Source: a virus (lineage: Duplodnaviria > Heunggongvirae > Uroviricota > Caudoviricetes). From it: a stretch of DNA of 13,914 bases. Location of the stretch: positions 1 through 13,914 of the IMG/VR virus record IMGVR_UViG_2698536392_000012, one strand, 5' to 3'. The notes under the pieces are model-generated. The model searched no databases. It saw only the letters and a list, made by a program, of their open reading frames with translations, and was not told the DNA's origin. Position numbers and translations under genes: made by a program. This document shows positions 1 to 13,914 of this stretch, piece by piece. The stretch's first letter is position 1. The number at the start of each line of letters is the position of its first letter.

Positions 1-41
1 AACCACCAGCGCGTTTACTGTACTGGCGTGATTTCAGTCAT

Positions 42-64
42 AAAAAAACCCGCCTGGCGACGGG
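42..64 (-). terminator. tR'-like intrinsic terminator about 80 nt downstream of the Q stop
   Basis: On the minus strand, hairpin CCCGUC-GCCA-GGCGGG (49-64) followed by a 7-T run (42-48). Its position just past Q matches the short terminated late transcript that Q antiterminates in lambdoid phages. Confidence 0.45.
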
Positions 65-145
65 TGTAAAAAATCTTCTAACGTCAGGCATAAAACGCCC
101 ATCGTTAGGGCAAATTTACCACAGATTCGGGAAAAATCAACAAAG

Positions 146-967
146 CTATCTGGTCACCTTTTTCAGTTGTTGTTCTGCCCATGCTTCTTCAATATCAAAC
201 TGCACCACCAGCGTATCGTAAAAACGTTTAACTGTTTTTTTCCATGTATCAAGAGATATGGCATCGGTTACATTACATATGGCATTAAATGCCTCCGTTG
301 AAGGTAATCTTTCATAGCCACGACCACCACAACGCTGGCAGTCTCTGATAACAGGCATACCACGTTTTACCGACTCTTCACGATGAATGGCAACACCGCG
401 CCCACGACAATCTTTACAGGCAGTGGATACCTCTCCCTTCCCTCCACACTCCGGACAGGCAACTTTTACCACCTCCCTGACTTTTTTCCATTCCTCCCAG
501 TAAGACGGATACACGCCTTTTGTGCACTTTGCCCACACTGGCGGCTTACCATCCGGATACTGGATCTTGTTTGTAAAAACCTCGCTTTCAATAAATTTTT
601 TTCCGTGACAACAGGGGCACTGTTTTTTGCTCGCCGCGCTACGGGCATAATCTTCAAACGCATACGAAGCCATAATACGCATCACTGCCGGTTTTATTTC
701 TGCCGGGAGTTTTCTTAACGCCGCCACGCGATCACACCGACTGAGTGCATATTCTGTCAGCAATTCTGTTGCCCGCTCTCTGTCATTCATACTAATGCCC
801 ATTTTCCCAAGGAACGCAGAAAACCCCATCTCAGCCCAATTCTGTGTCATGCCCTGCGCGGCCATCACATCAGTGATACTCAGCGTATCTTTCGACGTTG
901 AGGCCGATGCATCAGTCAGGCCGGGGGATTTTGGGGAGTAGTATTTCGGTAAATCTTCCAGTTTCAT
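146..967 (-). CDS. Phage antitermination protein Q family (late gene activator)
   Basis: 273 aa, ATG start. Several CxxC/CxxCxGxG zinc-finger motifs (CPCCHGKK, CPECGGKG, CKDCRGRG, CQRCGGRG). Last gene of the early-right operon, directly after rusA with an ATGA start/stop overlap, as for the Q-like antiterminators of Qin-type prophages. Confidence 0.7.
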   Translation of the reverse strand: MKLEDLPKYYSPKSPGLTDASASTSKDTLSITDVMAAQGMTQNWAEMGFSAFLGKMGISMNDRERATELLTEYALSRCDRVAALRKLPAEIKPAVMRIMASYAFEDYARSAASKKQCPCCHGKKFIESEVFTNKIQYPDGKPPVWAKCTKGVYPSYWEEWKKVREVVKVACPECGGKGEVSTACKDCRGRGVAIHREESVKRGMPVIRDCQRCGGRGYERLPSTEAFNAICNVTDAISLDTWKKTVKRFYDTLVVQFDIEEAWAEQQLKKVTR

Positions 968-1344
968 TTTTTGACCTGCCCTTCAAGCATTATGGGGTAA
1001 ATTTTCACCCCCAGACGTCCACCAGATACTGGCTGAGCACGAACGATATTGATTTCATCAAACTGCTCATCGTCCATTAGCAACCCCGCATGCGTCAGCG
1101 CATCCAGCGGCGCTTTCAGAATATTGTCCAGGTCACGGCGGCGCTTATCCGGTGGCTCGGCAATAATCTTTATCGCCAGCCTTCCGGACAGGCTTAATTT
1201 CAGCCGCTGCTGGCGAACAATAAGCGCCACAGCCCGGCGATAACGCTCACCGGCTTTTGATACAAAATATGTGTTGCCACGACGTCGCCAGTAAGTATTC
1301 ACCGTCGGCGGGTAAGGCAAAACAAATTCTATGCGTTCAGTCAT
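964..1344 (-). CDS. rusA: Holliday junction resolvase RusA
   Basis: 126 aa; from recall it resembles E. coli RusA (matching motif RRRDLDN, similar length). Typical nin-region position upstream of Q. Confidence 0.85.
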   Translation of the reverse strand: MTERIEFVLPYPPTVNTYWRRRGNTYFVSKAGERYRRAVALIVRQQRLKLSLSGRLAIKIIAEPPDKRRRDLDNILKAPLDALTHAGLLMDDEQFDEINIVRAQPVSGGRLGVKIYPIMLEGQVKK

Positions 1345-2403
1345 TCATGCTTTCCACTTCAGGACACCCGAATTTCTCGCGTGCATTAAAAAACGAATCA
1401 GCAACAACAGCTGGCTGCCGTGTTTTTCTTCAAAATCTTTTACCCCGGCGTGCAGTTCGTTATGACATTTACGGCACAGCGGAATAACAAACAAATCATC
1501 AGCCTTTGTTCCCATCCCTCCCAGTCCATGACCAATGATGTGATGCGGATCATCTGCCTGATTACCGCACGTCATGCATTTCTGCGTTTTTACCCAGCGC
1601 GTGTATACAGGCATCTCTTCCCGTTGTGGTTTCTGGCGCTGGAGATACTGAGCCGGAGATTCCGGATCAACGGCAATGCTGACCACCGCCTTTTCCTGTG
1701 ACGGGATTTGTTGCTGGTGGACGTGAGGCAACGGCGCAAGATTTTTTGTGCGCTGCTTCAGTATGCTGGTGGCGGTCTGCTCTCCCGGTACGATGTCGCT
1801 TTCGCGATACACCGAGTGGATTTTTTCCGCACGTAACCCCAGAGAACGACGCAATACTGCCTCCGGAAGCGCGTCCGCCACCTGATTGCAGACCGCCCAC
1901 CAGGATAATTCAGCCAGCGACAATTCCCGCTCCTGCGTGCCATTCATTGCATGGCGTATGACGTCAATCATCCATGCTGACAGGTTTTGATGAGCAAGTT
2001 GCTCGAGTGATTCGGAGGTCTGGTCGCGCAGCTGGTTGTCGCAGTGCCAGCACAACACCATTGCGCCGGTACCATAACGGTGAATGACGGTTTCACTGTG
2101 GTGATAATCGCCGTGTGGCCACTGGCAGGATTTAACATGGCGCAGTAACCAGTCAGACAATGCGCCAGCGCCACCAGCAGCACGAATCACTCGTTCGTCG
2201 CTGAAAAATGGCAGTAATGATTTATCCTCCGCCAGCGGCTGGCGAACGGCAGGAACGACCCCGGACGACAGATTACGCATGCTTTTCGGTTCCGGCTCCA
2301 CCAGTACCCGGGTATTGTGGAATACCGGCATGGATTCACGGCCCGGCTTAACGATCACCAGCCCGAGTTCCGGTACCAGAACAGGTCGAAGTAATACCCG
2401 CAC
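1345..2403 (-). CDS. DUF968/YdfU-like prophage protein with C-terminal Cys/His (HNH-like) motif
   Basis: 352-aa ORF. C-terminal CMTCGN...HHIIGHGLGG...CRKCHNELH zinc/HNH-like motif, as recalled for YdfU-type proteins. The ORF-track start is a GTG; the true start may be an internal ATG (residue 25 or 42). The stop abuts the rusA start. Confidence 0.55.
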   Translation of the reverse strand: MRVLLRPVLVPELGLVIVKPGRESMPVFHNTRVLVEPEPKSMRNLSSGVVPAVRQPLAEDKSLLPFFSDERVIRAAGGAGALSDWLLRHVKSCQWPHGDYHHSETVIHRYGTGAMVLCWHCDNQLRDQTSESLEQLAHQNLSAWMIDVIRHAMNGTQERELSLAELSWWAVCNQVADALPEAVLRRSLGLRAEKIHSVYRESDIVPGEQTATSILKQRTKNLAPLPHVHQQQIPSQEKAVVSIAVDPESPAQYLQRQKPQREEMPVYTRWVKTQKCMTCGNQADDPHHIIGHGLGGMGTKADDLFVIPLCRKCHNELHAGVKDFEEKHGSQLLLLIRFLMHARNSGVLKWKA

Positions 2404-2404
2404 G

Positions 2405-2683
2405 TTACCTCCAGATGCGTTGCTGGAATGTGCGGGACGGACGCGGTGGGCGTTCAGAGTAAGGAAGCCTGACGGAGATTATCCAGTGACGATAATCGAG
2501 GCTGAGGGCTTTCTTAATCCCGTATCCGTGTCTGCGGTAGCACTGAATTAGCCATTCAGCTTGTTCTTCAGTACATGGGGGATGCTGGTACCAATCAGAT
2601 TTGAATGTGCGGGAACGCCGCCCGTGCCTGCTGGCAAAGACAGCTGAATTATCAGAATTGTGTGATTTGGTATTGTGCGCCAT
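2405..2683 (-). CDS. Hypothetical nin-region protein (92 aa from internal ATG)
   Basis: The ORF-track start at 2764 lies inside the terminator hairpin, so the ATG at 2683 (MAHNTKSHNS...) is the more plausible start. Basic, Cys-containing, no recognised domain. Could correspond to the small rem-like gene found here in Qin-type prophages, but I cannot confirm this. Confidence 0.4.
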   Translation of the reverse strand: MAHNTKSHNSDNSAVFASRHGRRSRTFKSDWYQHPPCTEEQAEWLIQCYRRHGYGIKKALSLDYRHWIISVRLPYSERPPRPSRTFQQRIWR

Positions 2684-2760
2684 CGTCTTTCTCTGCTGGC
2701 GCAGCAGGTGCCAGTTGTTCAGGCTGACGTGCGAATTGTAAACCAGAATGCCAGGAAAAA

Positions 2761-2782
2761 ACAAAACCCGCCGAAGCGGGTT
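2761..2782. terminator. Bidirectional intrinsic terminator hairpin (copy A of a 22-bp direct repeat)
   Basis: AACCCGC-cgaa-GCGGGTT stem-loop flanked by an A-run upstream and a T-run downstream, so it can terminate on either strand. Identical 22 bp (ACAAAACCCGCCGAAGCGGGTT) recur at 4109-4130. Confidence 0.55.
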
Positions 2783-2798
2783 TTGTCAGTACTGAACA

Positions 2799-2948
2799 TC
2801 AAGCTGCGTGCTTGCCACTACAACTGCAAAGTGGGATCGGGAAAGGCTTCCCTTTTTTCGCGTGGCGCATTACACCATCTACACACACAGAGTAGCGAAA
2901 AATGATCTCACATGGACAGCCACATTTGCGACAGGTACCCATTGCCAT
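2799..2948 (-). CDS. Possible small Cys-rich protein (about 49 aa from internal ATG)
   Basis: ORF between the ImmA stop and terminator A containing CRKCGCPC and CSCSG motifs. Weak RBS and the ORF-track start is GTG, so this is low confidence. Confidence 0.2.
   Translation of the reverse strand: MAMGTCRKCGCPCEIIFRYSVCVDGVMRHAKKGKPFPIPLCSCSGKHAA
2838..2858 (+). terminator. Possible plus-strand intrinsic terminator
   Basis: GGGAA-aggc-TTCCC hairpin followed by TTTTTT on the plus strand. It lies inside the small minus-strand ORF and may block antisense read-through. Confidence 0.3.
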
Positions 2949-3115
2949 GATTTCGTTTTCCCTGCTCACCTGTGAATCCACACAGGTTGCACTTTGTTGG
3001 GAGAACCACTACACTTCGCTTGTCTACAAAAAGTGTTGTGATTGGATTATCTCCATACACTACGGAATGTGTTAGCGCACTTTCCGTCCCTAAAAGCCCT
3101 GTTAGCGCAGGGCTT

Positions 3116-3592
3116 TTACATATAAAAATCGAACGACATCTGTTGTGTTCTCACGCCAATTGTTTCCAGTACGATATCCGCAAATGTATCTGCCTGCCAT
3201 TCTGCATCCTCAATACGAGTAGGTTCTTTAACTGAAAAGTGTAAAACTGCTTTGTGTCCAAGAAGCAAATGACCTAGCTCGTGGAAGATAACAGCAAGTG
3301 CATGCTCTTCCCCAAGGCAAGCATTCACATATATTTTATTGGGAACCGTAATTGTTAGAGAAGCGGGGTCACAATGTCCGATAGTTAGATCATACGTCAG
3401 AGCCTCCCACTCTTTGTCGGTCCTGACGTCAAGAGTAACCCCATAAATTGACAGGCTTTCAAAGAACATATCATAACGCTTTCTTTTGCGCTTTGAGGCT
3501 GTAAGACCAATAGCATTACAGAAGTTTATAGCTCTGTAGGCTATTTCTTCTTCTTGCATCGGTGACACCCTGTTACCTCTCATTTGATACAT
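3116..3592 (-). CDS. ImmA/IrrE-family (COG2856) Zn metallopeptidase
   Basis: 158 aa with HELGHLLLGH (HEXXH) and a downstream EDAEWQADTFA motif, the usual third zinc-ligand region of ImmA/IrrE peptidases. Strong SD (GAGGGG) inside the 3' end of the upstream HTH gene; 2-nt intergenic gap. Confidence 0.7.
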   Translation of the reverse strand: MYQMRGNRVSPMQEEEIAYRAINFCNAIGLTASKRKRKRYDMFFESLSIYGVTLDVRTDKEWEALTYDLTIGHCDPASLTITVPNKIYVNACLGEEHALAVIFHELGHLLLGHKAVLHFSVKEPTRIEDAEWQADTFADIVLETIGVRTQQMSFDFYM

Positions 3593-3594
3593 AA

Positions 3595-3954
3595 TTACCC
3601 CTCATTGTTATTAATCTTTTGCAATAAATCTGCAAAACTCTTTAGCTGTTCCGGCGTAAACTGCGACTTAGCGAATCCCGCTACAAGCATTTTCTGTTGC
3701 TGAGACAAACCGTTTACTGGAACTGAGTCATTCGCAACTGCCGCTAACTCCTGTAACCCTTCAATTTCTACACCTTTGGCCTTGAAGTAAGAATCAATCT
3801 TCTTAACCCACTTCAGAGGTATTTTTTTGCTACCAGTTTCTAAACCGCTAAGAAACGCTGGCGTAGTGCCCAGTTCTTGAGACATAGTCAGAAGAGTACT
3901 GTCAGTATCGATCCTCGCTTTTCTAACGGCCTTACCGAATTCAGTGAGTGCCAT
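3595..3954 (-). CDS. XRE-family helix-turn-helix transcriptional regulator (ImmR-like partner of ImmA)
   Basis: 119 aa. N-terminal HTH (LLTMSQELGTTPAFLSGLETG). SD GAGGA 8 nt upstream of the ATG, with an AT-rich promoter-like region further upstream. Confidence 0.75.
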   Translation of the reverse strand: MALTEFGKAVRKARIDTDSTLLTMSQELGTTPAFLSGLETGSKKIPLKWVKKIDSYFKAKGVEIEGLQELAAVANDSVPVNGLSQQQKMLVAGFAKSQFTPEQLKSFADLLQKINNNEG

Positions 3955-4108
3955 GATTTTATCCTCAATTTGTTGATTTAGCAGACTTGCCTAACGCAAG
4001 CCTGATGGGCGCTTAAATTCTAATTCCTAAAATTTACCATATACGAAAGCAAAGTAAACCTTTTTAGTTAAAAAAATCTCCTTTAAGGGAATTTTTTTCA
4101 CAAAAAGA

Positions 4109-4130
4109 ACAAAACCCGCCGAAGCGGGTT
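4109..4130 (-). terminator. Intrinsic terminator hairpin (copy B of the 22-bp direct repeat), terminating the hok transcript
   Basis: Same AACCCGC-cgaa-GCGGGTT hairpin as at 2761-2782, followed on the minus strand by TTTGTTCTTTTTG. Located about 70 nt downstream of the hok stop. Confidence 0.5.
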
Positions 4131-4198
4131 AAGTGCGGGTGCGTTGAGGATGCCTGACACATCAGAGGTGGCGAGGGATTTCTCCCCCGCCAGGTCTC

Positions 4199-4354
4199 TT
4201 ACTCCTCAGGTTCGTAAGCTGTGAAGACAGCGACCTCCGTCTGGCCGGTTCGGATTCGTACCTCGCAGAGGTCTTTCCTCGTTACCAGTGCCGTCACTAT
4301 GACGGTTAAACAGATGACGATCAGGGCGATTAACATCGCCTTTTGCTGCTTCAT
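4199..4354 (-). CDS. hokD: Hok/Gef-family type I toxin (HokD/RelF-like)
   Basis: 51 aa MKQQKAMLIALIVICLTVIVTALVTRKDLCEVRIRTGQTEVAVFTAYEPEE, recognised from recall as HokD/RelF-like. SD AAGGAG 9 nt upstream. The ORF-track in-frame upstream extension (to 4411) is probably not used. Confidence 0.85.
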   Translation of the reverse strand: MKQQKAMLIALIVICLTVIVTALVTRKDLCEVRIRTGQTEVAVFTAYEPEE

Positions 4355-4598
4355 AGCCTGCTTCTCCTTGCCTTTCGGCACGTAAGAGGCTAGCCTACAT
4401 GTGCAAGTCATAGATATGGCCTCAGATTAATGTTAAGCGTCTTGCCGGACGCGTAATGTTAACTGGGGCTTTTCTCTGTCTGCCTTACGGCGGCATGCCC
4501 GAGGCAGACAGCCTCAAGCACCCGCAGCAATTCTACTTAACTCTCGCTTTACAGCAAACCGTTTTTGCCCGATATGGGAATTCCCATACGGAATGAAT

Positions 4599-4703
4599 TC
4601 AGTTCCCCAGGCGATCCATCAAAAACACAACCAGGCAGTAAACACCCACAACAGCAATAACAGCCAGAGCGCCTTCCATTACCAGTGAAATATCATCCGA
4701 CAT
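4599..4703 (-). CDS. Small hydrophobic peptide (34 aa), candidate small membrane protein or type I toxin-like ORF
   Basis: MSDDISLVMEGALAVIAVVGVYCLVVFLMDRLGN: acidic N-terminus plus one predicted TM helix. Very strong SD (AAGGGAGGG) 3-4 nt before the ATG, and promoter-like hexamers upstream. Not in the ORF track because it is under 60 aa. Confidence 0.35.
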   Translation of the reverse strand: MSDDISLVMEGALAVIAVVGVYCLVVFLMDRLGN

Positions 4704-4812
4704 ATTCCCTCCCTTGGTGTGAATTCCGGCGAACGTTTTTACCCCCACCGACAAATAACATATACTAGAAAAGCAATAGCTATAGCAACGCCTGCAAATG
4801 CATCGGGCCGGC

Positions 4813-5646
4813 TCATTGGTGCGCCCCCTGTATCGCTTCTACTGCGATCTGACTGGCGTATTTGTTAATGGTAACGATAAGTTCTTGCTCGGCCTCATCC
4901 AGACAACCACCGATACCTCGCCTGTCACCTTCAGAAGCATCGAAATCTGCACGAACCCTGGCGACCTTCAGGATTGCGGACAACACCTCATCAGGGATTG
5001 CCGGAGAGTTGGTTGACGTTTCCGAGGTTATCCGAAAATTATTGGTTGACGAATTCTTATTTTCCCGAAAGTTTTCGGCATGAAGCATGGCGGTGTTATA
5101 CCCATCCGCGAAAATCTCTGCTTCTTCGTTATTCAGTTCGGCACCAAGTTTAAGCGCAATAGCTTTTGCCATTGAGGCGGTAATTTGATGGCATGGCTGA
5201 CGTCCATGAAGCATGGCGTCGCTCCGCTCTATGCCATCCAGCGCAATTCGAAGCGCATGAATTGTAGTAATGCTATCGTTTGGGGTTATTCCGTATCGTT
5301 CGAATACAGCGATATGGTTGCGCATAATCGCAGGTGTAAGCTCTTTGTAAGCAAGAGCAAGAGGTCCAGATACATCGTTCAGCACTACCGTCATCGGTGA
5401 GGCGGCGTAGACTTCAATAATCCCAGTATCAATAGGCCATTCCCCATCCTTGATATAGTAACTTGTTCCGTCAACTTGCTGTTCTACAATGTGGAAAGCA
5501 CCTATTGGTTCTGCTTCCAGCGATGCCAGTGCAATTTTGAATAACTCGCCCTCTACCCGTGCCATCCCTGAATTGGGGTAGCATTTCGCAATCGCTATTT
5601 TTAATTTGGCTTCTTCGATTAATTTCTCTTTGGTTAATTCAGTCAC
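4813..5646 (-). CDS. Hypothetical protein (277 aa), unknown function
   Basis: Long ORF with a GTG start preceded by a CCGCCC-gaaa-GGGCGG hairpin. No recognised catalytic motif. Co-oriented downstream of the 70-aa and 119-aa genes. Confidence 0.55.
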   Translation of the reverse strand: MTELTKEKLIEEAKLKIAIAKCYPNSGMARVEGELFKIALASLEAEPIGAFHIVEQQVDGTSYYIKDGEWPIDTGIIEVYAASPMTVVLNDVSGPLALAYKELTPAIMRNHIAVFERYGITPNDSITTIHALRIALDGIERSDAMLHGRQPCHQITASMAKAIALKLGAELNNEEAEIFADGYNTAMLHAENFRENKNSSTNNFRITSETSTNSPAIPDEVLSAILKVARVRADFDASEGDRRGIGGCLDEAEQELIVTINKYASQIAVEAIQGAHQ

Positions 5647-5681
5647 TTTTCATTACCGCCCTTTCGGGCGGCCTCCTGACA

Positions 5682-5894
5682 TTAATCGTTGTGATAACTC
5701 ATAGCTTCATTTGCAGCATCAACTGGATCAACATCCCACCAGCAATAATTTGGGTCGACACCTTCAGGTGTCCACGGCTCTAATTCATTTTTTGCTACAT
5801 TCTCGTCACCAGTAATTTTAAAAATCTGCTCAGAGAATTTTTTTACCCACTCGTTATATTTTTCCGCGTTAATGGTTTTCTGTGTATTTAACAT
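5682..5894 (-). CDS. Hypothetical small acidic protein (70 aa)
   Basis: Strong SD (GGAGG) upstream of the ATG. Rich in D/E and W (WTPEGVDPNYCWWDVDPVDAANE). No recognised domain. Confidence 0.5.
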   Translation of the reverse strand: MLNTQKTINAEKYNEWVKKFSEQIFKITGDENVAKNELEPWTPEGVDPNYCWWDVDPVDAANEAMSYHND

Positions 5895-5939
5895 AGATAT
5901 ACCTCCGGTTAAGGATTAAATTTTATTTACAGTGCTGAT

Positions 5940-6299
5940 TTAATATTCAGTTCTGGCTTTTGTTGCCCTGCGTATCCGCGCTTTCGCGTTACGCTCAATC
6001 TGAATTAGCTTTTCTATATTTTTTCGCCTTTCCTGTTCCTCCTGGCGCAATAGCCTTACATCATCTGCCAGTCTGGTTTCTCTTTTAGCCACAGAGAGCA
6101 TCCAGTCAAACGGCTCCACAACTGCACCACAGATTTTGCAGCGGACCTGACGCTCTTTTTCGTCAACCCGGACAGAAGCGTGATGGCAGTATGGTCTTTC
6201 CGATGGCTCATAGAGAAAATTAACCTGATTACGTGGGTCATCCTCTTTTACCGGAAATAAAACGATATTGCTTAACTCATCTTCTGGTTTTATTTCCAT
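5940..6299 (-). CDS. Hypothetical zinc-ribbon protein with basic coiled-coil C-terminus (119 aa)
   Basis: SD AAGGAG 7 nt upstream. C-HH...CxxC spacing (CHHASVRVDEKERQVRCKICG) suggests a zinc ribbon. The C-terminus is Arg/Lys/Glu-rich and helical-looking. Confidence 0.55.
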   Translation of the reverse strand: MEIKPEDELSNIVLFPVKEDDPRNQVNFLYEPSERPYCHHASVRVDEKERQVRCKICGAVVEPFDWMLSVAKRETRLADDVRLLRQEEQERRKNIEKLIQIERNAKARIRRATKARTEY

Positions 6300-6356
6300 G
6301 GTCCTCTCCTTTGATGCGAATGCCAGCGATAATTGAAGCCTGATAGCTAATTTTAC

Positions 6357-6779
6357 TCACAGCCCCCCCCCCTGATAATTTCCCTGATAAAACGCCAGCA
6401 CTCGCTGCATAACTTCGCTCTTCCGGCACTCGCGACAGATTATATTCAGGCGCCTGTCGTAACGACGTATTTCTCCATCAGGTAATGACCAGATAAGGTC
6501 CGGATCAACCGCAGATGGTTTCTTCAGCTTTGCCCTTGAGAGCTTTTTACGGGCATTTTGCCAGTCCTTACGCGCCTGTTCAGACGGGAATAACCCGTAA
6601 CCAGAGTTGTATACATCGCCACTGGCAACCAGCTCTCTGGCCAGAACGCTCATCAGATATCTTGTTGCCCCAGTTTTAGCTTCCAGTTGTCGTAACGTCT
6701 CGCGCCCACTCTGGCGTACGAGTTCAAGAACCTGCCCTTTAATTTTTTCCCGCTCTTCTTGTGTAAAAACTTTTGCCAC
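6357..6779 (-). CDS. Hypothetical protein with putative winged-helix motif (140 aa), in the position of a replication accessory gene
   Basis: GTG start with strong SD (AGGAGG). Follows the O-like gene where lambda carries P. Too short for a DnaC/DnaB-type loader. The 3' end contains a G10 homopolymer on the coding strand. Confidence 0.55.
   Translation of the reverse strand: MAKVFTQEEREKIKGQVLELVRQSGRETLRQLEAKTGATRYLMSVLARELVASGDVYNSGYGLFPSEQARKDWQNARKKLSRAKLKKPSAVDPDLIWSLPDGEIRRYDRRLNIICRECRKSEVMQRVLAFYQGNYQGGGL
6363..6372. repeat. C10/G10 homopolymeric tract at the 3' end of the 140-aa CDS
   Basis: Ten consecutive C on the plus strand (G10 on the coding strand) encoding the GGG of the C-terminal ...QGGGL, ending 4 nt before the stop codon. 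Confidence 0.9.
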
Positions 6780-6819
6780 AAGCCCTCCTGAAAATTACCT
6801 CATGACCAGAAATACACAC

Positions 6820-7890
6820 TTACCCCCTGAAGCCCGGTGGAATTTCGGTATCCGGTTCAGAAATATGATTCACACAACGCTGGTTGTTCGTACCGCTTAC
6901 CGGGAGCAACCAGGGGTTTTCAAAATTCCGGTCCGGTCCAAAAAACGTCGTCGCTCGCTGAACAAATTCCGTTCCCGTTTTCCCGGTAGCCGCCAGGTAT
7001 CTTGCGTAACGCCTCACACCATCCAGCATGGCCTCTGGTGGCACCCCCTCGCGTAATCTGGCCTTCCAGGCACTGAAAGCGGATTTCTTCGGGTTTGCCC
7101 CAGCACGCAACGGGTATTCCCGCCAGACCTGTTCGAACACATCCGGATAATCTACTCGCCCCACAGGCTGCCCGGTGTTTTCCGGGACTACCCGATCGGC
7201 TTCCCGCTGAATGGCGGAATCGGCTTCAGGCTGCTGCAGTTGGTGTGATTGCTCCGGCCTTGCGGTCATCACCTGCTGCACAGCGCCCGAATCGGCTTTC
7301 AGCGCATACGCTGAATCGGCTTCCGGTGTCGTGCCTGCTGGCTGACCAGGATTGACGGTCTGAACATCCCCTGCCTGGTTCGTGGCGTTTTTTACGCCAT
7401 GGACCATAGTGTTTTGATCTTCTTGATCTGTATCTTTATCTGTATCTTTATCTGTCGTGACTCGTCGTGACATGTGCGTGACATTTCGTGACGCGCCGTG
7501 ACAATCGCCATTTTGTTCCCGCTTTCTTTCCCTCTCTCGCTGCGCCCTCTTGCGCTCTGCAGGAGATTTTGCGGTTTGCGAAATATTGCCGTTGTCCTCT
7601 TTCAGCACCTGGCGTTTTTCCCATCCAGTGATTAAATCACCATCAAGTACCCGCCCCTGCATCGTCTGCAAAATTGAATCAATTACCTCTTCTGTCACGT
7701 CGAGCGCACTTGCCAAATCTTCTGTCGTGACATCAATGTGACCTCGCGTGACATTTCGTGACGCGCTCACCAGGAGGTGGATATACACTGCCATCACTGT
7801 TGCAATTGGCTGCCCTGACACCCTGGCAATTGTTCGCCACTTAGGGTCATTTGGCATGTCATGCCATAATCTGAGCCAGGCGTTAGCCAT
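6820..7890 (-). CDS. Phage replication initiator / replisome organiser (lambda O-like), containing the putative origin
   Basis: About 356 aa from the ATG at 7890 (the ORF track starts two codons earlier at a GTG). The coding sequence contains clustered CGTGAC repeats (iterons), as in the lambda O gene. The C-terminal region (YPLRAGANPKKSAFSAWKARL...) resembles prophage replication proteins from recall. Confidence 0.65.
   Translation of the reverse strand: MANAWLRLWHDMPNDPKWRTIARVSGQPIATVMAVYIHLLVSASRNVTRGHIDVTTEDLASALDVTEEVIDSILQTMQGRVLDGDLITGWEKRQVLKEDNGNISQTAKSPAERKRAQRERERKREQNGDCHGASRNVTHMSRRVTTDKDTDKDTDQEDQNTMVHGVKNATNQAGDVQTVNPGQPAGTTPEADSAYALKADSGAVQQVMTARPEQSHQLQQPEADSAIQREADRVVPENTGQPVGRVDYPDVFEQVWREYPLRAGANPKKSAFSAWKARLREGVPPEAMLDGVRRYARYLAATGKTGTEFVQRATTFFGPDRNFENPWLLPVSGTNNQRCVNHISEPDTEIPPGFRG
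7427..7502. repeat. Putative origin iteron cluster 1 inside the O-like gene
   Basis: 12-bp tandem repeat TCTGTATCTTTA x2.4 (7427-7455) followed by five CGTGAC copies starting at 7456, 7466, 7477, 7487 and 7497 (10-11 bp spacing, one helical turn). Confidence 0.6.
7721..7766. repeat. Putative origin iteron cluster 2 inside the O-like gene
   Basis: CGTGAC/TGTGAC copies at 7726, 7738, 7747 and 7757. The 21-bp segment GCGTGACATTTCGTGACGCGC (7746-7766) is an exact copy of 7476-7496. An inverted GTCACG copy sits at 7694-7699. Confidence 0.6.
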
Positions 7891-7961
7891 ACTCACCTCT
7901 TCTGATACCGAATCTTTTTACTCACGAGTTGCCGGAAGCGATTCGATATGGCTATTGTCAG

Positions 7962-8387
7962 TCAATGTACTGCCACAGCATTTCCTGCCGGGCCACCACG
8001 ATTCATCTGATTGAAACCGGCGATTGCCACTGCGACAAAATCATCAGCGTCTCTCACCAGTCGCTCCCGCGTCTCCACCAGCTCCCGAAAATAAGCTGAA
8101 CTGTGGCTGCGCATTCTGGCCACCAGCAAAGGTGGCATTGCCTTTTCGATCGCTGGTAACAACGCCTGAATTTTTTCAACTGCATCAGGGGTGTCTTTCT
8201 CTACCCAGCGGAAAATTTTCTGGGTATTACGAGCCAGGGCTTCCGGATGGCTGTCGTCGTACAGTTCCGGGAACGTCATCCCCAGTTCGAAATAAGTCCG
8301 GGCTATTTCAGCTGCAGGAACTTTCTCACCATCAGGGTATGCCCAGGCATTCATCGCCATGCGGATGTGCTCATGCTTGATTTTCAT
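7962..8387 (-). CDS. YdaT-like protein (CII-position regulator of Rac/Qin-type prophages)
   Basis: 141 aa starting MKIKHEHI..., which I recall as characteristic of YdaT-family proteins. Its start overlaps the cro-like stop (ATGA), suggesting translational coupling. Confidence 0.55.
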   Translation of the reverse strand: MKIKHEHIRMAMNAWAYPDGEKVPAAEIARTYFELGMTFPELYDDSHPEALARNTQKIFRWVEKDTPDAVEKIQALLPAIEKAMPPLLVARMRSHSSAYFRELVETRERLVRDADDFVAVAIAGFNQMNRGGPAGNAVAVH

Positions 8388-8647
8388 GAATCAACTCCCA
8401 GCGCGGGTTGTGTGTTAGCCTGATAGTCAACAGGTATGCCATCGGTTGGGTTGGGGTAAGTACTGCTATCAATCTCGTGCGGGGTCACTACCCACCCTGT
8501 TGCTTCACACCAGCGTAAAACTTTCCCCCCCGTAAGTTTCGCCCGTCCAGTAATAACATGGCTTACCATCCCTTGGGTTACCCCAACAATTTCAGCAAAA
8601 TCTTTCTGGGTTATACGGGAATGATGCAAATATTCTCCAAGATTCAT
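8384..8647 (-). CDS. Cro/YdaS-like HTH DNA-binding protein (first gene of the early-right operon)
   Basis: 87 aa with HTH (ITQKDFAEIVGVTQGMVSHVI). SD GAGGT 5 nt upstream. Divergent from the repressor gene across an operator-containing intergenic region. Confidence 0.7.
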   Translation of the reverse strand: MNLGEYLHHSRITQKDFAEIVGVTQGMVSHVITGRAKLTGGKVLRWCEATGWVVTPHEIDSSTYPNPTDGIPVDYQANTQPALGVDS

Positions 8648-8679
8648 TGTTCACCTCATGTTATGTGACCATGAGCATT

Positions 8680-8739
8680 AATAGCATTGTTATTTTTAAA
8701 AGTAAATAGCATCGCTATTTCAAAGAGATTAATAATCTT
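8680..8739. promoter_or_regulatory. Divergent promoter/operator region (OR-like) between the cro-like and repressor genes
   Basis: Perfect palindrome AAATAGC-atc-GCTATTT (8704-8720), imperfect copy TAATAGC-att-GTTATT (8680-8694) centred 25 bp away, and a 13-bp palindrome AGATTAaTAATCT (8727-8739). Confidence 0.6.
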
Positions 8740-8754
8740 ATTAGAATTGAAGGT

Positions 8755-9255
8755 ATGAAAAGAAAACCCCTGTCAGAGATCGACCTGCAAGCCGCCCAGA
8801 GACTGAAAGAAATCTGGACGACGAAAAAAACTCAACTTGGGTTAACCCAAGAGCGTGCGGCAGAAATTCTGGGTTTTTCGACACAAGGGGCAGTAAGCCA
8901 TTATCTAAATGGTCAGACACCTTTAAATCTAGAGGCTGTTATCAAGTTCGCTGGGTTGCTACAAGTTCCGCCTGAGTCAATTAGACCAGATATGGCAGAC
9001 TTGTTACGAATTGTAAGGATGTACCCCCAAGAACTGCAGCAGGATAATGTTGTCGCTTTACCCGCAGAGATGGAGCAATCGGAAAACGAACTTCCGTTTA
9101 ATATAGAACCTATAGAGCGAGATTTGATCCAGACGTTCAGGGCTTTCCCAAAAGAAGACAAAGAGAAAATGCTTAAGGAAATGAAGGAGAAAAAAGAATC
9201 AATTGAAGAAACCGTTGCGCGGTGGCTAGAGGCGCAAAAAGGTCGTCGCGCCTAA
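8755..9255 (+). CDS. DicA/CI-like HTH repressor, probably a PaaR-type regulator of the downstream toxin-antitoxin pair
   Basis: 166 aa with N-terminal XRE HTH (LGLTQERAAEILGFSTQGAVSHYLNG) and no S24 peptidase domain. C-terminal helical region similar in style to DicA. Followed 17 nt later by the paaA-parE-like genes on the same strand. Confidence 0.7.
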   Translation: MKRKPLSEIDLQAAQRLKEIWTTKKTQLGLTQERAAEILGFSTQGAVSHYLNGQTPLNLEAVIKFAGLLQVPPESIRPDMADLLRIVRMYPQELQQDNVVALPAEMEQSENELPFNIEPIERDLIQTFRAFPKEDKEKMLKEMKEKKESIEETVARWLEAQKGRRA

Positions 9256-9272
9256 TCTGAGGAGGTTAGAAC

Positions 9273-9464
9273 ATGAGTACAGTCCTTTCCCCGATAATTT
9301 CAGAATTTGAAACAATCGAACAAGAAAACAGCTATAACGAATGGTTACGCACCAAAGTGGCAGCAAGCCTCGCAGACCCCCGTCCTGCAATTCCGCATGA
9401 CGAAGTAATGGCTGAAATGGAAAACCTTATTGCGCAAATAGCTTCGACGAACAGGAGTGAGTAA
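9273..9464 (+). CDS. PaaA-like antitoxin (ParE-associated antitoxin)
   Basis: 63 aa. The core SEFETIEQENSYNEWLR...SLADPRPAIPHDEV resembles PaaA2 of E. coli O157 prophages from recall. Strong SD (GGAGG). Its stop overlaps the toxin start (TAATG). Confidence 0.7.
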   Translation: MSTVLSPIISEFETIEQENSYNEWLRTKVAASLADPRPAIPHDEVMAEMENLIAQIASTNRSE

Positions 9465-9754
9465 TGCTGCCCATTTTATGGCTACCTTCTGCGCGTGATG
9501 ATTTGCGTCAGATCGTAGCCTATATTGCCAAGGAAAACCCTCCCGCTGCACGTAGACTAAAAATACGCATTGAAACATCAGTTTTGTCACTTTCTGAACA
9601 TCCTTACCTGTATCCACCAAGCGAAAGAGCTCTAGGCCTTCGTGAGATAGTGACCCATCCTAACTACATAATACTTTACCGAGTAACAGCATCTAACATC
9701 GAGATCGTAAATGTAGTTCACTCACGAAGGCAGTATCCAAACAAAAGCTGTTAA
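9464..9754 (+). CDS. parE: ParE/RelE-superfamily toxin
   Basis: 96 aa with the typical ParE pattern (W.P.A..DL..I..YIA..NP.AA, REIV, NIEIVNVVHSRR). Translationally coupled to the upstream antitoxin. Confidence 0.8.
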   Translation: MLPILWLPSARDDLRQIVAYIAKENPPAARRLKIRIETSVLSLSEHPYLYPPSERALGLREIVTHPNYIILYRVTASNIEIVNVVHSRRQYPNKSC

Positions 9755-9768
9755 TCATTCCTACCAAC

Positions 9769-9792
9769 AACCACCTTCGGGTGGTTTTTTTT
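9769..9792 (+). terminator. Rho-independent terminator of the repressor-TA operon
   Basis: AACCACC-ttcg-GGTGGTT hairpin followed by a T8 run, 15 nt after the parE stop. Confidence 0.8.
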
Positions 9793-9810
9793 CTTACCTC
9801 CAAAAAAAAC

Positions 9811-9849
9811 AATAGCATTACTATTTACACGATAAAATAGCAGTGCTAT
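9811..9849. promoter_or_regulatory. OL-like operator pair / leftward early promoter region
   Basis: Perfect palindrome AATAGC-agt-GCTATT (9835-9849) and imperfect AATAGC-att-ACTATT (9811-9826), 24 bp centre to centre. Same half-sites as the sites at 8680-8720. Confidence 0.55.
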
Positions 9850-10028
9850 TGTTTATTCATCACCCACCCACCCCACAGAATGCAGGGCAATACCTCGAGT
9901 TACCCGGCAGTGGCCAGGGGTTAAGTAGCCAGCCCGAGGCGTATGAACATGACGGCGGGAACACTTTGTATAACAGCGCAGCAGGTTTTTAGTTCCGCGA
10001 CCCGGCGTTAAGGGTAAATGAGGTCAAC

Positions 10029-10181
10029 ATGGATATGCTCAATCTTGGCAACAACGAATCTCTGGTATGCGGAGTATTCCCCAACCTGGACGGCACGTTC
10101 ACCGCGATGACGTATACCAGAAGCAAAACGTTTAAAACGGAAGCTGGCGCGCGTCGCTGGTTAGCAAGAAACTCTGACTGA
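10029..10181 (+). CDS. Small hypothetical protein (50 aa), first ORF of the pL-side operon (YdfA-like position)
   Basis: SD GAGGT 5 nt upstream of the ATG. MDMLNLGNNESLVCGVFPNLDGTFTAMTYTRSKTFKTEAGARRWLARNSD. Identity not confirmed. Confidence 0.4.
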   Translation: MDMLNLGNNESLVCGVFPNLDGTFTAMTYTRSKTFKTEAGARRWLARNSD

Positions 10182-10279
10182 TGAAGGTTAGTAATTAAAG
10201 AGTTCTCCACAGGCGAAGTGGAATACGTTCGCCGGACACGGGTAAGCATCCGGCATGCTCTTTAACAATCTGGGTATTC

Positions 10280-10726
10280 CTAACCACAAAGGAATCGCAT
10301 CAATTTGGATTTTGCAGACAGTTTCTCTTGTTGTTCTACGGAGATTCCTATTTTGATCTGGGTTTTTAAGATTGCGATATCTTTAAGCGACGACCAAATA
10401 TTATCATCTGTTTTTTCCAGGAGCTTTAACTGCATTTTCAATTCCGAATCGGAATATTTTTCTGCATCATCATAAAGCTGCAGATATTCTGCGGATTTTC
10501 TCATTGCGTTACCTGACTTTTGTCCGAATCCGTAAATCGTTTGAACGGTTGCTATCACAACAATGAGAACTCCAGAAACTTCAGGAATAAATCCACCAAT
10601 GACAGATGAACCGAGGATAATACTCACCACTGAGAGAAGTTTATCGAGACGACCAGTCGCTACAGAGAATAGTTGTTCAAGAAAATAACCATATAAAACC
10701 CTGTCAAGAATATCATCCCGGTCCAT
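10280..10726 (-). CDS. Two-TM membrane protein (148 aa), candidate superinfection-exclusion/abortive-infection protein (SieB-like position; SLATT-like architecture)
   Basis: Two adjacent hydrophobic helices (LLSVVSIILGSSVIGGFIPEV, SGVLIVVIATVQTIYGF) followed by a charged, coiled-coil-like C-terminus. AT-rich and convergent to the pL-side genes, like sieB in Rac. Confidence 0.55.
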   Translation of the reverse strand: MDRDDILDRVLYGYFLEQLFSVATGRLDKLLSVVSIILGSSVIGGFIPEVSGVLIVVIATVQTIYGFGQKSGNAMRKSAEYLQLYDDAEKYSDSELKMQLKLLEKTDDNIWSSLKDIAILKTQIKIGISVEQQEKLSAKSKLMRFLCG

Positions 10727-10785
10727 ATATCATCACCTGCTTGTTTGATTGTTGCTGTTCCCCCTCTCCTCTGAAGGAGCTGGAG

Positions 10786-10983
10786 ATGGTTTTGGTCGAA
10801 TGTTTTTCTCAGGTATATGTTTCCTGGTATTCGGAATGTCCGACCTGTCCGCAGGCTTACCAGTACCTGAACAATTCTTTTGAACCACCATATAAAACAC
10901 CTTCCTGTTGTTGGGGATATCCAGATTATACAGATTATACAGATTTCCTGTCGTTGGGGAACGACGGAAACCACCTCGCCTGA
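10786..10983 (+). CDS. Possible small Cys-rich protein (65 aa)
   Basis: Good SD (AAGGAG, 6-nt spacer). CxxC and CC motifs and a YTDYTD repeat encoded by a 9-bp tandem DNA repeat (10912-10936). Could correspond to the small ydfB/ydfC-type genes upstream of dicF, unconfirmed. Confidence 0.3.
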   Translation: MVLVECFSQVYVSWYSECPTCPQAYQYLNNSFEPPYKTPSCCWGYPDYTDYTDFLSLGNDGNHLA

Positions 10984-11210
10984 CGTGGTTAAAAGCAGGC
11001 ACACAACGCGAAAGCGTACGGCGAAGCTCTTTCCCTTAGAAGGCTTGTCGTTAGATTTCTTCGAACGTGCGCTTCCGGTTGTGGCAATCCGCGAAATGGC
11101 GCGGCGGTAAGTATGGCGGGGTTATTCCTTCCCCAGTTGAGGACACCGGGTTGTCAGGTTGACCATACGCTTAAGTGACAACCCCGCTACAACGCCCTCT
11201 GTTATCAATA

Positions 11211-11268
11211 TTCTGGTGACATTTGGCGGTATCAGTTTTACTCCGTGACTGCTCTGCCGCCCTTTTTT
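11211..11268 (+). ncRNA. dicF: DicF small regulatory RNA (ftsZ-targeting sRNA of Qin-type prophages)
   Basis: TTCTGGTGACATTTGGCGGTATCAGTTTTACTCCGTGACTGCTCTGCCGCCCTTTTTT matches the recalled E. coli DicF sequence nearly base for base, including the GGCGG/CCGCC terminator stem and T-run. Sits immediately upstream of dicB. Confidence 0.8.
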
Positions 11269-11438
11269 AAAAGTGAATTTTGTGATGCGGTGAATGCGGC
11301 TCAGCGCACGCGGAACAGTTAAAACCAAAAACAGTGTTATGGGTGGATTCTCTGTATCCGGCGTTAATTGTTAACTGGTTAACGTCACCTGGAGGCACCA
11401 GGCACCGCATCACAAAATTCATTGTTGAGGACGCGATA

Positions 11439-11627
11439 ATGGAAAAGTTATCATGTAATGCCAGCACGTCTGAACTTCGTTTCGAAATTGGCGTTATCAC
11501 TGGAGACAAAACATTTATTGAAGACGCCATTAAGCAGAGAAAACTCGAGCAGGACCTGTTAAATGAAGTATGCATTCCTTCAATGCTGGCTCGTCTGGAC
11601 CTGCTGCAAAAAGGATATAAACAATGA
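11439..11627 (+). CDS. dicB: DicB cell-division inhibitor (MinC-dependent)
   Basis: 62 aa; the motifs FEIGV, EDAIKQRK and CIPSMLARL align with recalled K-12 DicB at the same length. Downstream of dicF as in Qin. Confidence 0.8.
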   Translation: MEKLSCNASTSELRFEIGVITGDKTFIEDAIKQRKLEQDLLNEVCIPSMLARLDLLQKGYKQ

Positions 11628-11815
11628 ATACAACATTTGCACTCGTTCTGACAGTTTATCTTGTTTCCGGCGAATCTCTTGAGCTGGTGACTGGCTTATA
11701 CGGTTCAATGAAAGAATGCATGGCTGCAGCAGCAGAACAAAAAATTCCCGGTAACTGTTATCCGGTAGATAAAACTACTCACACTAATAATAACGAAATA
11801 CCGGCAGGACTTTAA
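11624..11815 (+). CDS. ydfD: YdfD-like small membrane/lysis protein
   Basis: 63 aa with N-terminal TM helix (FALVLTVYLVSGE) and a C-terminus ending ...KIPGNCYPVDK...EIPAGL, resembling YdfD from recall. Start overlaps the dicB stop (ATGA). Confidence 0.7.
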   Translation: MNTTFALVLTVYLVSGESLELVTGLYGSMKECMAAAAEQKIPGNCYPVDKTTHTNNNEIPAGL

Positions 11816-11908
11816 AACAGCACCGTAATTAATATCCGGTTTCATTTTTATATGCCAGCAATGGCAGGGATTTGTTCACCCTTAAATCTGTAATGAGGTT
11901 AAAACAAA

Positions 11909-13914
11909 ATGAGTAAAGTCTTTATTTGCGCCGCCATTCCGGACGAACAGGCAATAAAAGAAGAGGGCGCAGTTGCTGTAGCCACTGCCATTGAAGCCGG
12001 TGATGAACGCCGCGCCCGTGCCAAATTTACCTGGCAATTCCTGGAGCAATATCCTGCTGCTCAGGACTGCGCTTATAAATTTCTTGTCTGCGAAGATAAA
12101 CCCGGCATGCCCCGCCCTGCTATCGACTCCTGGGATACCGAATATATGCAGGAAAACCGCTGGGATGAGGAATCCGCTTCCTTTATTCCGGTCGAACCAG
12201 AATCCGATCCGATGAACGTCAATTTTGACAAGCTGTCCCTTGAAGTACAGAACGCGGTCCTGGTTAAGTTCGGTACATGTGAAAACATCACCGTTGATAT
12301 GGCGATTGACGCGCAGGAATTACTGCAGGAAGACGTTGCTACCTTTGACGGGCATATCGTTGAAGCACTGATGAAAACGCCTGAAATTAACGCTATGTAT
12401 CCGGAACGCAAACTGTTCGCTATCGGATGGGTTAAACACAAATGTAATCCGGGTGCCAAATGGCCCGAAATTCAGGCTGAATTACGTAACTGGAAAAAAC
12501 GGCAGGACGCAGAGCGCAAAGAGACTGGAAAATACACGTCTGTTGTTGATCTCGCCAGCGCCAGAGTCAATCAACAGAACACTGAAAACTCAGCAGGAAA
12601 AATCAACCCAGTCACTGCCGCCATTTGTCGCGAATACAAGCAGACATGGAAAACGCTGGATGAAGAACTGGCCTACGCTCTCTGGCCTGGCGATATTGAT
12701 ACCGGAAACATTGACGGCAGCATCCATCGCTGGGCAAAAAATGAAGTTATCGACAAAGATCGCGAAGACTGGAAGCGCATTTCCGCATCAATGCGCAAAC
12801 AACCCGATGCCGTTCGCTACGACCGTCAGACTATTTTTGGCCTTGTCCGTGAGCATCCGATCGACATTCACAAAGATCCCGTAGCACTGAACAAATACAT
12901 CACTGAATACCTGACTACCAAGGGCGTGTTTGAAGATGACGAAGGAACAAATCAGGGCACAGCTGGTACTCTCCCGTCACCAGTACCAAAAACTGATGCA
13001 GTGGAAACGGCAATGCCGGACAACGAAAAAACCGAATGCGAAGTGGAAGACGAACCATCTGTAGAGCGTGAGGGACCGTTCTACTTCCTTTTCACCGATA
13101 AGGACGGCGAAAAATACGGTCGCGCAAACAAACTTTCTGGTCTGGAAAAAGCACTGGCCCTGGGAGCTACGGAAATCACAAAAGAGGAATACTTCGCACG
13201 TAAAAACGGCACGTACTCAGGTTCACAACAAAATACTGGTGCATCTGACACGATCGCACAACCAGAGCCGGTAAAAGTTACCGCTGACGAAGTAAACAAA
13301 ATTATGCAGGCAGCCAATATCAGCCAGCCTGACGCCAATAAGTTGCTTGCTGTATCACGTGGTGAATTTGTTGCAGGGATTAGCGACCCGAATGATCCGA
13401 AATGGGTGAAGGGGATTGAAACCCGCGATTCAGTGAATCAGAACCAGCAAGAAACGGAACAGAACGGCCAGAAAGCGGAACAAAACAGCCCAAATGCGTT
13501 ACAAAACGAGCCAGAAACGAAACAACCTGAACCAGTAGCGCAACAGGAACCGGAAAAAGTCTGCACCGCCTGCGGTCAGACCGGCGGCGGCAACTGCCCT
13601 GATTGTGGCGCGGTGATGGGCGACGCAACATACCAGGAAACATTCGATGACAAGAACCAGGTTGAAGTTCAGGAAGACGATTCGGAGAAAATGGAAGGCG
13701 CTGAACATCCACACAAGGAGAATGCTGGCGGCAATCAGCATCACGATAGCGATAATGAAACTGGCGAGACGGCAGATCACTCAATTAAGGTGAACGGTCA
13801 TCAAGAAATCACATCCACCAGCAGGACGTGTGACCATCTAATGATCGACCTTGAAACCATGGGAAAAAATCCTGATGCCCCGATCATCTCAATAGGTGCA
13901 ATATTTTTCGATCC
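11909..13914 (+). CDS. recE: RecE-like exonuclease (exodeoxyribonuclease VIII family), 3'-truncated by the window end
   Basis: Open frame from the ATG at 11909 to the window end (missed by the ORF track because no stop lies in the window). The segment LLAVSRGEFVAGISDPNDPKWVKGIETRD...CTACGQTGGGNCPDCGAVMGDATYQETFD aligns with the recalled central region of E. coli RecE. The last residues (MIDLETMGKNPDAPIISIGAIFFD) look like a DnaQ/DEDD Exo I motif. Confidence 0.75.
   Translation, partial: MSKVFICAAIPDEQAIKEEGAVAVATAIEAGDERRARAKFTWQFLEQYPAAQDCAYKFLVCEDKPGMPRPAIDSWDTEYMQENRWDEESASFIPVEPESDPMNVNFDKLSLEVQNAVLVKFGTCENITVDMAIDAQELLQEDVATFDGHIVEALMKTPEINAMYPERKLFAIGWVKHKCNPGAKWPEIQAELRNWKKRQDAERKETGKYTSVVDLASARVNQQNTENSAGKINPVTAAICREYKQTWKTLDEELAYALWPGDIDTGNIDGSIHRWAKNEVIDKDREDWKRISASMRKQPDAVRYDRQTIFGLVREHPIDIHKDPVALNKYITEYLTTKGVFEDDEGTNQGTAGTLPSPVPKTDAVETAMPDNEKTECEVEDEPSVEREGPFYFLFTDKDGEKYGRANKLSGLEKALALGATEITKEEYFARKNGTYSGSQQNTGASDTIAQPEPVKVTADEVNKIMQAANISQPDANKLLAVSRGEFVAGISDPNDPKWVKGIETRDSVNQNQQETEQNGQKAEQNSPNALQNEPETKQPEPVAQQEPEKVCTACGQTGGGNCPDCGAVMGDATYQETFDDKNQVEVQEDDSEKMEGAEHPHKENAGGNQHHDSDNETGETADHSIKVNGHQEITSTSRTCDHLMIDLETMGKNPDAPIISIGAIFFD

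Follow-up and report, generated by a model that had tools for sequence, protein, structure and literature searches.

A predicted micropeptide and SLATT-like membrane protein pair takes the place of sieB in a lambdoid prophage, under a sieB-type promoter and a sas-like antisense RNA

Superinfection exclusion by sieB is a classical prophage trait, the mechanism of which has stayed obscure. In phage P22, sieB is expressed from the prophage (PMC10883804), and its product inhibits lytic development in phages that superinfect (PMC12197685). P22 is spared this exclusion by the sas RNA: base-paired to the sieB mRNA, sas shifts translation away from SieB and toward the antagonist Esc (PMC12197685, PMC10002423). 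By RNA-seq, sas is 127 nt long and comprises the complement of the sieB start codon followed by a box, a hairpin, and a pseudoknot; it was detected in infected cells, with zero reads in uninfected P22-free controls (PMC13397905). The present study concerns a 13,914-nt stretch of DNA from the early region of a lambdoid prophage (IMG/VR virus record IMGVR_UViG_2698536392_000012, positions 1 to 13,914; hereafter the window) and, specifically, a gene for a 148-amino acid (aa) membrane protein that lies where sieB lies in the Rac prophage. Sequence comparison, covariation analysis, and structure modeling suggest that here the sieB control module is joined to a different cargo, a proline-rich micropeptide and a membrane protein that resembles the SLATT effectors. 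On balance, we think it probable that these two genes form a moron that is expressed in the lysogen and serves as a superinfection-exclusion or abortive-infection device with self-protection of the sas type.

Upstream of the micropeptide open reading frame (ORF), 120 nt can be aligned with the DNA that precedes sieB in lambda, P22, and Rac. In the P22 record, the sieB promoter and RNA start are annotated within this DNA, with the start at the base immediately 5′ to a C-rich box; Table 1 lists the corresponding elements of the window, assigned by homology. A promoter scan gave 10 of 12 consensus matches (ACGACA-18-TATAAT). Otherwise near-identical IMG/VR contigs (e.g., L124) carry a single copy of CTGTATAAT; its duplication in the window creates a better −35/−10 combination, and thus expression may be raised. 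Boxes 1 and 2 co-vary between lineages. They read CCCCAACAAC in the Escherichia coli types, whereas a Providencia phage has CACCACAACG, Vibrio has GCGACYCAATA, and Rac, lambda, and P22 share ACCCYTACAG. Binding of CsrA to GGA motifs in the boxes was considered and dropped, as box 1 lacks GGA in several lineages.

Table 1. Features of the window that are discussed in the text (TM, transmembrane; HTH, helix-turn-helix; SD, Shine-Dalgarno)
Feature	Position	Strand	Basis or remark
Gene for the 148-aa two-TM, SLATT-like membrane protein	10280-10726	−	ATG start; ORF list, hydropathy, model, family search
Micropeptide ORF, 52 aa, proline-rich, unannotated: MVVQKNCSGTGKPADRSDIPNTRKHIPEKNIRPKPSPAPSEERGNSNNQTSR	10733-10891	−	Conserved motif, codon-position pattern
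SD sequence of the micropeptide ORF, AGGAAGG	10900-10906	−	Read from sequence
Box 2, CCCCAACAAC, predicted mRNA 5′ end	10907-10916	−	Homology
Predicted transcription start	~10917-10918	−	Homology with the mapped P22 sieB RNA start
Tandem 9-bp duplication, two copies of CTGTATAAT	10925-10942	−	Two TATAAT −10 hexamers, 10925-10930 and 10934-10939
−35 region	10949-10959	−	ACGACA, 10949-10954, overlapping box 1
Box 1, CCCCAACGAC	10950-10959	−	Direct repeat of box 2
Predicted sas-like antisense RNA	10887-11017, ends approximate	+ (early-operon strand)	Alignment to P22 sas RNA
Hairpin B of the sas-like RNA	10944-10970	+	Covariation
H-type pseudoknot of the sas-like RNA	10971-11000	+	Covariation; loop lengths fit classical H-type
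cI-like HTH gene	8755-9255	+	
relB/relE, type II toxin-antitoxin of the ParE family	9273-9754	+	Inserted into the early-left operon right after the cI-like repressor
DUF1391 gene	10029-10181	+	
DicF RNA	11211-11262	+	Rfam, 77 bits
dicB	11439-11627	+	Followed by a DUF1482 gene and an exonuclease gene
hokD/sok, type I toxin-antitoxin	4199-4523	−	Rfam sok, 111 bits, at 4349-4523; hokD from PGAP

Homology extends to the antisense RNA. All 127 nt of P22 sas are covered by an alignment with plus-strand positions 10884 to 11022 of the window (72 of 125 positions identical, 58%), and identity rises to 83% (49 of 59) in the structured part. The predicted RNA is complementary to the start codon, SD sequence, and leader of the micropeptide ORF. 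Three helices in the region carry compensatory changes: in an alignment of 28 sequences read on the early-operon strand, 94.8% of the cells are paired and 11 of the 20 pairs have changed on both sides, a level reached by none of 500 shuffles, while slid controls gave 32–47%. In the inner stem of hairpin B, 59 cells are G.U on the early-operon strand and hence A.C on the gene strand, versus 0 of the reverse, which indicates that the structure belongs to the early-operon strand. This asymmetry, together with the loop geometry and the published sequence of P22 sas, led us to drop a reading in which the boxes are operator sites for a DNA-binding protein and the stems are alternative hairpins on the strand of the 148-aa gene. 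Support for the RNA structure comes from covariation and homology rather than from folding energy. An unconstrained pseudoknot search was uninformative, shuffled sequences yielding 9–12-bp pseudoknots as often, and an Rfam scan of positions 10200–11300 at a permissive threshold matched only DicF, so that the sas-like element has no Rfam family. One hairpin of the antisense RNA has the complement of box 1 as its 5′ arm and GGGG loop. This hairpin could in addition pair with mRNA box 2, which suggests a kissing-loop contact between the loop of the sas-like RNA and that box. The predicted 3′ end of the RNA holds a short GAAA-tetraloop hairpin (ACGC-GAAA-GCGT, 11006–11017 of the plus strand), which is found in the E. 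coli-type cassettes and not in P22 or lambda.

To judge from its relatives, the ORF downstream of this module is a genuine gene and did not arise by chance. When 1.84 billion representatives (clusters at 50% identity) were searched exhaustively with HMMER, a family of 146 clusters was recovered, the full-length members of which are almost all stand-alone proteins of 140–190 aa; those that are named are all “hypothetical” and come from Enterobacterales and Vibrio. In an identical E. coli chromosome the Prokaryotic Genome Annotation Pipeline (PGAP) names the product WP_000373334.1, “hypothetical protein.” An earlier note on this DNA, made from the sequence alone, had described a 148-aa ORF on the strand opposite to the surrounding pL-side genes, convergently oriented between the repressor region and dicF/dicB, with two adjacent TM helices, a charged helical C terminus, and a marked AT-richness, and each of these points was borne out. 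PGAP also calls the gene; hydropathy places TM1 at residues ~30–47 and TM2 at ~50–67, separated by a 2-residue loop, with Lys or Arg on both flanks and a charged C-terminal stretch of 80 residues, and both termini are predicted to be cytoplasmic; and, at 38.5% GC where the window averages 47.8%, the gene ranks within the lowest 0.7% of 447-nt windows. The flanking genes all lie on the plus strand, and hence the 148-aa gene runs opposite to the early-left operon and converges on the DUF1391 gene. The suggestion in that note of an independently expressed moron also agrees with our data, given a predicted promoter homologous to the mapped P22 sieB promoter and the antisense position of the pair in several phage types.

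That note had also likened the locus to sieB of Rac, and at the level of DNA the parallel is stronger than it proposed. In Rac the order is racR–ydaG–DUF1391–sieB (opposite strand)–kilS small RNA–kilR; in the window it is cI-like–relBE–DUF1391–148-aa gene (opposite strand)–DicF–dicB. As far as comparison of the sequences goes, the window shares with the sieB/esc/sas loci of P22, lambda, and Rac the slot and antisense orientation inside the early-left operon, a homologous promoter and 5′ leader with its box repeats and RNA start (mapped in P22), and a homologous antisense RNA with hairpin and pseudoknot. The products are alike in layout, each a small inner-membrane protein with an N-terminal two-TM hairpin and a cytoplasmic C-terminal domain. 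In contrast, the proteins are unrelated by sequence and by profile. BLASTP produced no alignment between the 148-aa protein and Rac SieB. The profile comparison with SieB that the note had put forward found no kinship either: Pfam PF14163 matches Rac SieB (E 1.5e-31, the positive control) and does not match the 148-aa protein, and hhalign of a 112-sequence family profile against an alignment of Rac, lambda, and P22 SieB returned a probability of 0.4%. The PHROGs differ as well (6315 for the 148-aa protein, 6399 for SieB). The locus also differs from sieB/esc/sas in that its first cistron is a proline-rich micropeptide and in that its gene has no conserved equivalent of the internal start of Esc. 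Met75, the sole internal Met with an SD-like sequence, was tried as an Esc-like in-frame start and rejected, for it is not conserved among close homologs.

From its layout, the micropeptide ORF is predicted to be coupled in translation to the membrane-protein gene. Its TGA stop (10733–10735) falls within AGGTGA, the SD-like sequence of that gene, and precedes its ATG by 6 nt, and in all loci the stop of the leader ORF is 0–8 nt from the SD sequence of the membrane-protein gene. A short ORF directly precedes the homolog in both phage genomes that carry one, and each family member that was inspected (17 lineages) is preceded by an ORF with a shared motif, even where the large protein is only ~25% identical (Enterobacter, Yersinia, Vibrio, Serratia, Providencia, and Salmonella). 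These micropeptides are 22–55 aa long and consist of a core, [KR]-H-[IVM]-P-x-[KR]...R-P-x-P-x-P-P, and then a charged tail. Differences between homologs fall mostly in the third codon position (e.g., 4/0/11 and 5/1/12 by position), which is a coding signature. Among the matches listed in a scan for the control cassette (described below), each locus with the micropeptide as its first ORF has a family member next (E ≤1e-47), and other cargos under the same leader lack such a peptide; thus, the peptide appears to belong to the membrane protein and not to be a generic leader or a part of the cassette. In some E. coli O145 strains, the operon is reduced to its first 257 nt, with the micropeptide ORF and the beginning of the gene for the 148-aa protein, which indicates a deletion of the membrane-protein gene.

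SLATT (SMODS/SLOG-associating 2TM) domains are predicted pore-forming effectors of defense systems, and the family of the 148-aa protein resembles them weakly but consistently. The protein itself belongs to phrog_6315, the function of which is not annotated, and it has no match in a Pfam scan. When 112 full-length family members were scanned individually against the libraries, 28 gave matches to NCBIfam SLATT_4 and 5 to SLATT_1, all below cutoff (best SLATT_4 E 1.2e-5); TIGR04402 (mobilome CxxCx11CxxC) was matched by two members and every further family by one member each. An AlphaFold2 model built from the 112-sequence alignment is all-helical with a predicted local distance difference test (pLDDT) score of 90.2, compared with 59 when six sequences only were used. 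Viral proteins annotated as SLATT head the Foldseek list for this model, and a fold search of the PDB found no relative. With the two-TM effectors of the SLATT group (SMODS/SLOG-associating, those of CBASS, and those associated with reverse transcriptases [RTs], e.g., DRT10/UG17), the window family has in common a two-TM hairpin flanked by cytoplasmic helices, these below-cutoff matches and a fold search led by SLATT-annotated proteins, and a setting of phage defense or conflict. However, it lies far below the curated cutoffs, it is without a nucleotide cyclase, SLOG, TIR, or RT partner, and its sole partner is the proline-rich peptide. On the sequence and model comparisons, the family is therefore best called SLATT-like, membership in SLATT not being established.

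The pair is confined to temperate phages and prophages and always lies on the strand opposite to the flanking early or late genes, whether in lambdoid early-left regions, in P2-like early operons beside cox, in 186-like phages just after cII, or between Q or NinG and the lysis genes. The last setting, a moron slot with the lysis genes on one side and NinG or the late antiterminator on the other, is seen in phage EKP1 (L003, 4847–5441) and in L053 (3869–4468); EKP1 is recorded as an Elizabethkingia phage, yet it has lambdoid-type Q, holin, and Rz genes. Two 186-like prophages carry defense genes near the integrase or repressor in addition to the pair, KwaA/KwaB (Kiwa) in Yersinia (L049, 8715–10228) and GmrSD with HEPN proteins in Vibrio (L051, 7207–9092), and in a Providencia alcalifaciens prophage (L054, 3587–3772) a phage CsrA homolog on the early-operon strand immediately adjoins the cassette. 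Among 5426 complete E. coli genomes the pair occurs in 89, always on the chromosome and including O145 and other Shiga-toxigenic lineages, whereas 4738 genomes contain matches to parts of window positions 9700–11400 (a 1.7-kb stretch that takes in the DUF1391 gene and DicF), a pattern that marks a variable cargo within a backbone common to many strains. A scan of genome contigs with the close alignment gave no confirmed locus.

A scan of IMG/VR for the two-box pattern, the equivalent of window positions 10886–11012, placed the pair in a wider context. It returned at least 52 cassette loci (within L055–L174; e.g., L059, L106, L061, and L066), in which the sieB-type promoter/leader/sas cassette precedes at least four further unrelated cargo families besides the micropeptide and two-TM pair. 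The pair itself follows the cassette at no fewer than 9 loci. The other cargos are phrog_1244 (150–175 aa, with a coiled coil and CxxC pairs; at least 20 loci), phrog_5286 (144–148 aa; at least 17), phrog_10348 (78 aa; at least 5), and a 98-aa protein (at least 1 locus). Among the matches listed, none of the cassette cargos matches Pfam or PADLOC.

The exclusion or abortive-infection device that we favor would work as follows. From the sieB-type promoter (−10 at 10925–10930, start at ~10917), a bicistronic mRNA would be made that encodes the 52-aa peptide and then, by coupling, the 148-aa inner-membrane hairpin with its cytoplasmic helical domain of ~80 residues. As long as the early-left operon is repressed, the pair would be produced. 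Upon infection by another phage, the membrane protein may oligomerize or open, which would collapse the membrane potential and abort the infection, and the micropeptide may gate, or be required for, this activity. When the resident prophage is induced, or when a relative with the same module infects, early-left transcription would, as homology to P22 sas suggests, yield the sas-like RNA; this would base-pair with the start codon and SD sequence of the micropeptide ORF and with its leader, and translation would be turned off or re-programmed, sparing the phage its own weapon. Two arguments lead to this scheme. Because the control module is homologous to that of sieB, the pair should be made in the lysogen and silenced or re-programmed by a sas-like RNA, and because the hairpin is SLATT-like and SLATT proteins are predicted to form pores, we propose depolarization, with abortive infection or exclusion as the outcome.

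Several observations weigh against this scheme. The window protein matches SLATT_4 (NCBIfam NF033632) at E 0.011 and 15.6 bits, where the curated cutoff is 55, none of the 112 members matches a Pfam SLATT model (SLATT_1–6), and a helical hairpin is a simple fold. To our knowledge, a sensor enzyme is present in all characterized SLATT systems, and no SMODS, SLOG, TIR, or RT partner gene stands beside family members in the 12 or more contexts examined. A PADLOC scan of the 148-aa protein gave no match. On the side of the RNA, the folding energy of the single sequence is no better than that of shuffles (z ~ −1), and no promoter for the sas-like RNA was found. Moreover, to argue from the sieB slot is to argue by association, as its other cargos are themselves uncharacterized. 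The suggestions of the earlier note on function therefore stand in part. Its SLATT-type architecture holds for the two-helix hairpin and is supported, weakly though consistently, by the below-cutoff SLATT_4 matches and the SLATT-led fold list, but not at the level of curated thresholds or Pfam SLATT models. Its sieB analogy holds for slot, orientation, promoter, leader, and antisense RNA, but not for the protein. Its statement that no partner is adjacent is right about nucleotide-signaling enzymes, but it overlooked the conserved micropeptide ORF and the sas-like RNA.

The alternative that survives best, which we nonetheless consider improbable, is a type I toxin–antitoxin-like module of the hok/mok/sok kind, in which a membrane toxin depends on a leader ORF and the sas-like RNA is an antitoxin acting on the ribosome-binding site of that leader. 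Loss of the labile RNA, through shut-off of transcription by a lytic phage or through loss of the prophage, would then release the toxin. The outcome would again be abortive infection or addiction, but the RNA would be a constant brake and not a signal for self-protection. The layout fits this logic: a protein predicted to be membrane-active lies downstream of a leader ORF, a cis-antisense RNA covers the SD sequence and AUG of the leader, the stop of which abuts the SD sequence of the membrane gene in all loci, and the same prophage contains a genuine hokD/sok (Table 1). The hok/sok system is itself said to be able to exclude phage T4, a finding attributed to Pecota and Wood in 1996. However, with its 148 residues, two TM helices, and folded cytoplasmic domain of ~80 aa, the window protein is ~3 times larger than the single-TM toxins of <60 aa, and the amino-acid sequence of the leader peptide is conserved, something that a pure coupling device would not require. 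The antisense RNA of the window is a homolog of sas and not of Sok, and a promoter for its constitutive synthesis was not found. In P22, moreover, sas has been described as a product of the infecting phage that serves to escape exclusion (PMC12197685, PMC10002423), and it was present in infected cells and without reads in uninfected P22-free controls (PMC13397905).

We think it unlikely that the 148-aa protein instead blocks DNA injection at the inner membrane without killing the cell, as do P22 SieA, T4 Imm, and HK97 gp15. An inner-membrane protein encoded in a prophage slot that is used for exclusion would suit such a role. However, the periplasmic loop of ~2 residues makes this improbable, nearly the whole protein being cytoplasmic, and the fold and profile leads favor SLATT effectors. 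In addition, sieB, the usual occupant of the slot, has been reported to inhibit lytic development and not entry (PMC12197685). There is also little to recommend an accessory function outside phage conflict, such as a factor in lysis timing, a holin-like protein, or a factor in host physiology. Two family members do adjoin lysis cassettes, and the protein is a small helical membrane protein, but these copies likewise run opposite to the lysis genes, the majority of copies lie in early regions beside the immunity repressor, and the gene is, by homology, under a sieB-type promoter that is active in the lysogen. That the 148-aa protein is a highly diverged SieB ortholog, as the common slot, promoter, and antisense module and the similar layout of an N-terminal two-TM hairpin and a cytoplasmic domain of ~80–100 aa might suggest, is very improbable and is effectively refuted at the sequence level by the BLASTP, Pfam, hhalign, and PHROG comparisons given above.

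The cassette loci allow a broader and more speculative extension of the exclusion device, one that we hold only tentatively. The sieB promoter/leader/sas module may be a portable expression socket and a hitherto unrecognized hotspot in lambdoid, P2-like, and 186-like phages, in which unrelated exclusion cargos are swapped, antisense self-immunity is inherited with the socket, and, at this locus, a micropeptide acts as a novel type of regulator of a SLATT-type pore. Cargos of such a socket may include SieB, the micropeptide and SLATT-like pair, PHROGs 5286, 1244, and 10348, and the 98-aa protein. The micropeptide may be a gate or trigger peptide, or it may be a proline-stalling leader that ties synthesis of the effector to the state of the translation machinery. 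If this extension is true, the window would hold the first SLATT effector controlled without a nucleotide-signaling enzyme.

Exclusion of the sieB type, expressed in the lysogen and controlled by sas, is already known, as are SLATT-like membrane effectors. What is new here is the micropeptide partner, the absence of a signaling enzyme, and the interchangeable cargos on the sieB/sas module; in the literature searched we found no mention of WP_000373334.1 and no account of the sieB locus as a cargo hotspot. If the module is conserved and its cargo can be swapped, it would supply a sequence address for mining prophage exclusion genes, a single scan having returned at least five cargo families besides SieB. 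The cargo of the window would extend the SLATT-like effectors to a minimal two-gene form, the partner being a micropeptide of a size that standard annotation misses. In E. coli, including Shiga-toxigenic lineages, the pair may shape susceptibility to phages, which matters for phage therapy and phage typing and for how stx phages spread.

Elsewhere in the window, the replication/nin region contains an ImmA/IrrE metallopeptidase gene paired with an HTH repressor gene (3116–3954, minus strand), a second switch of the immunity type within one prophage.

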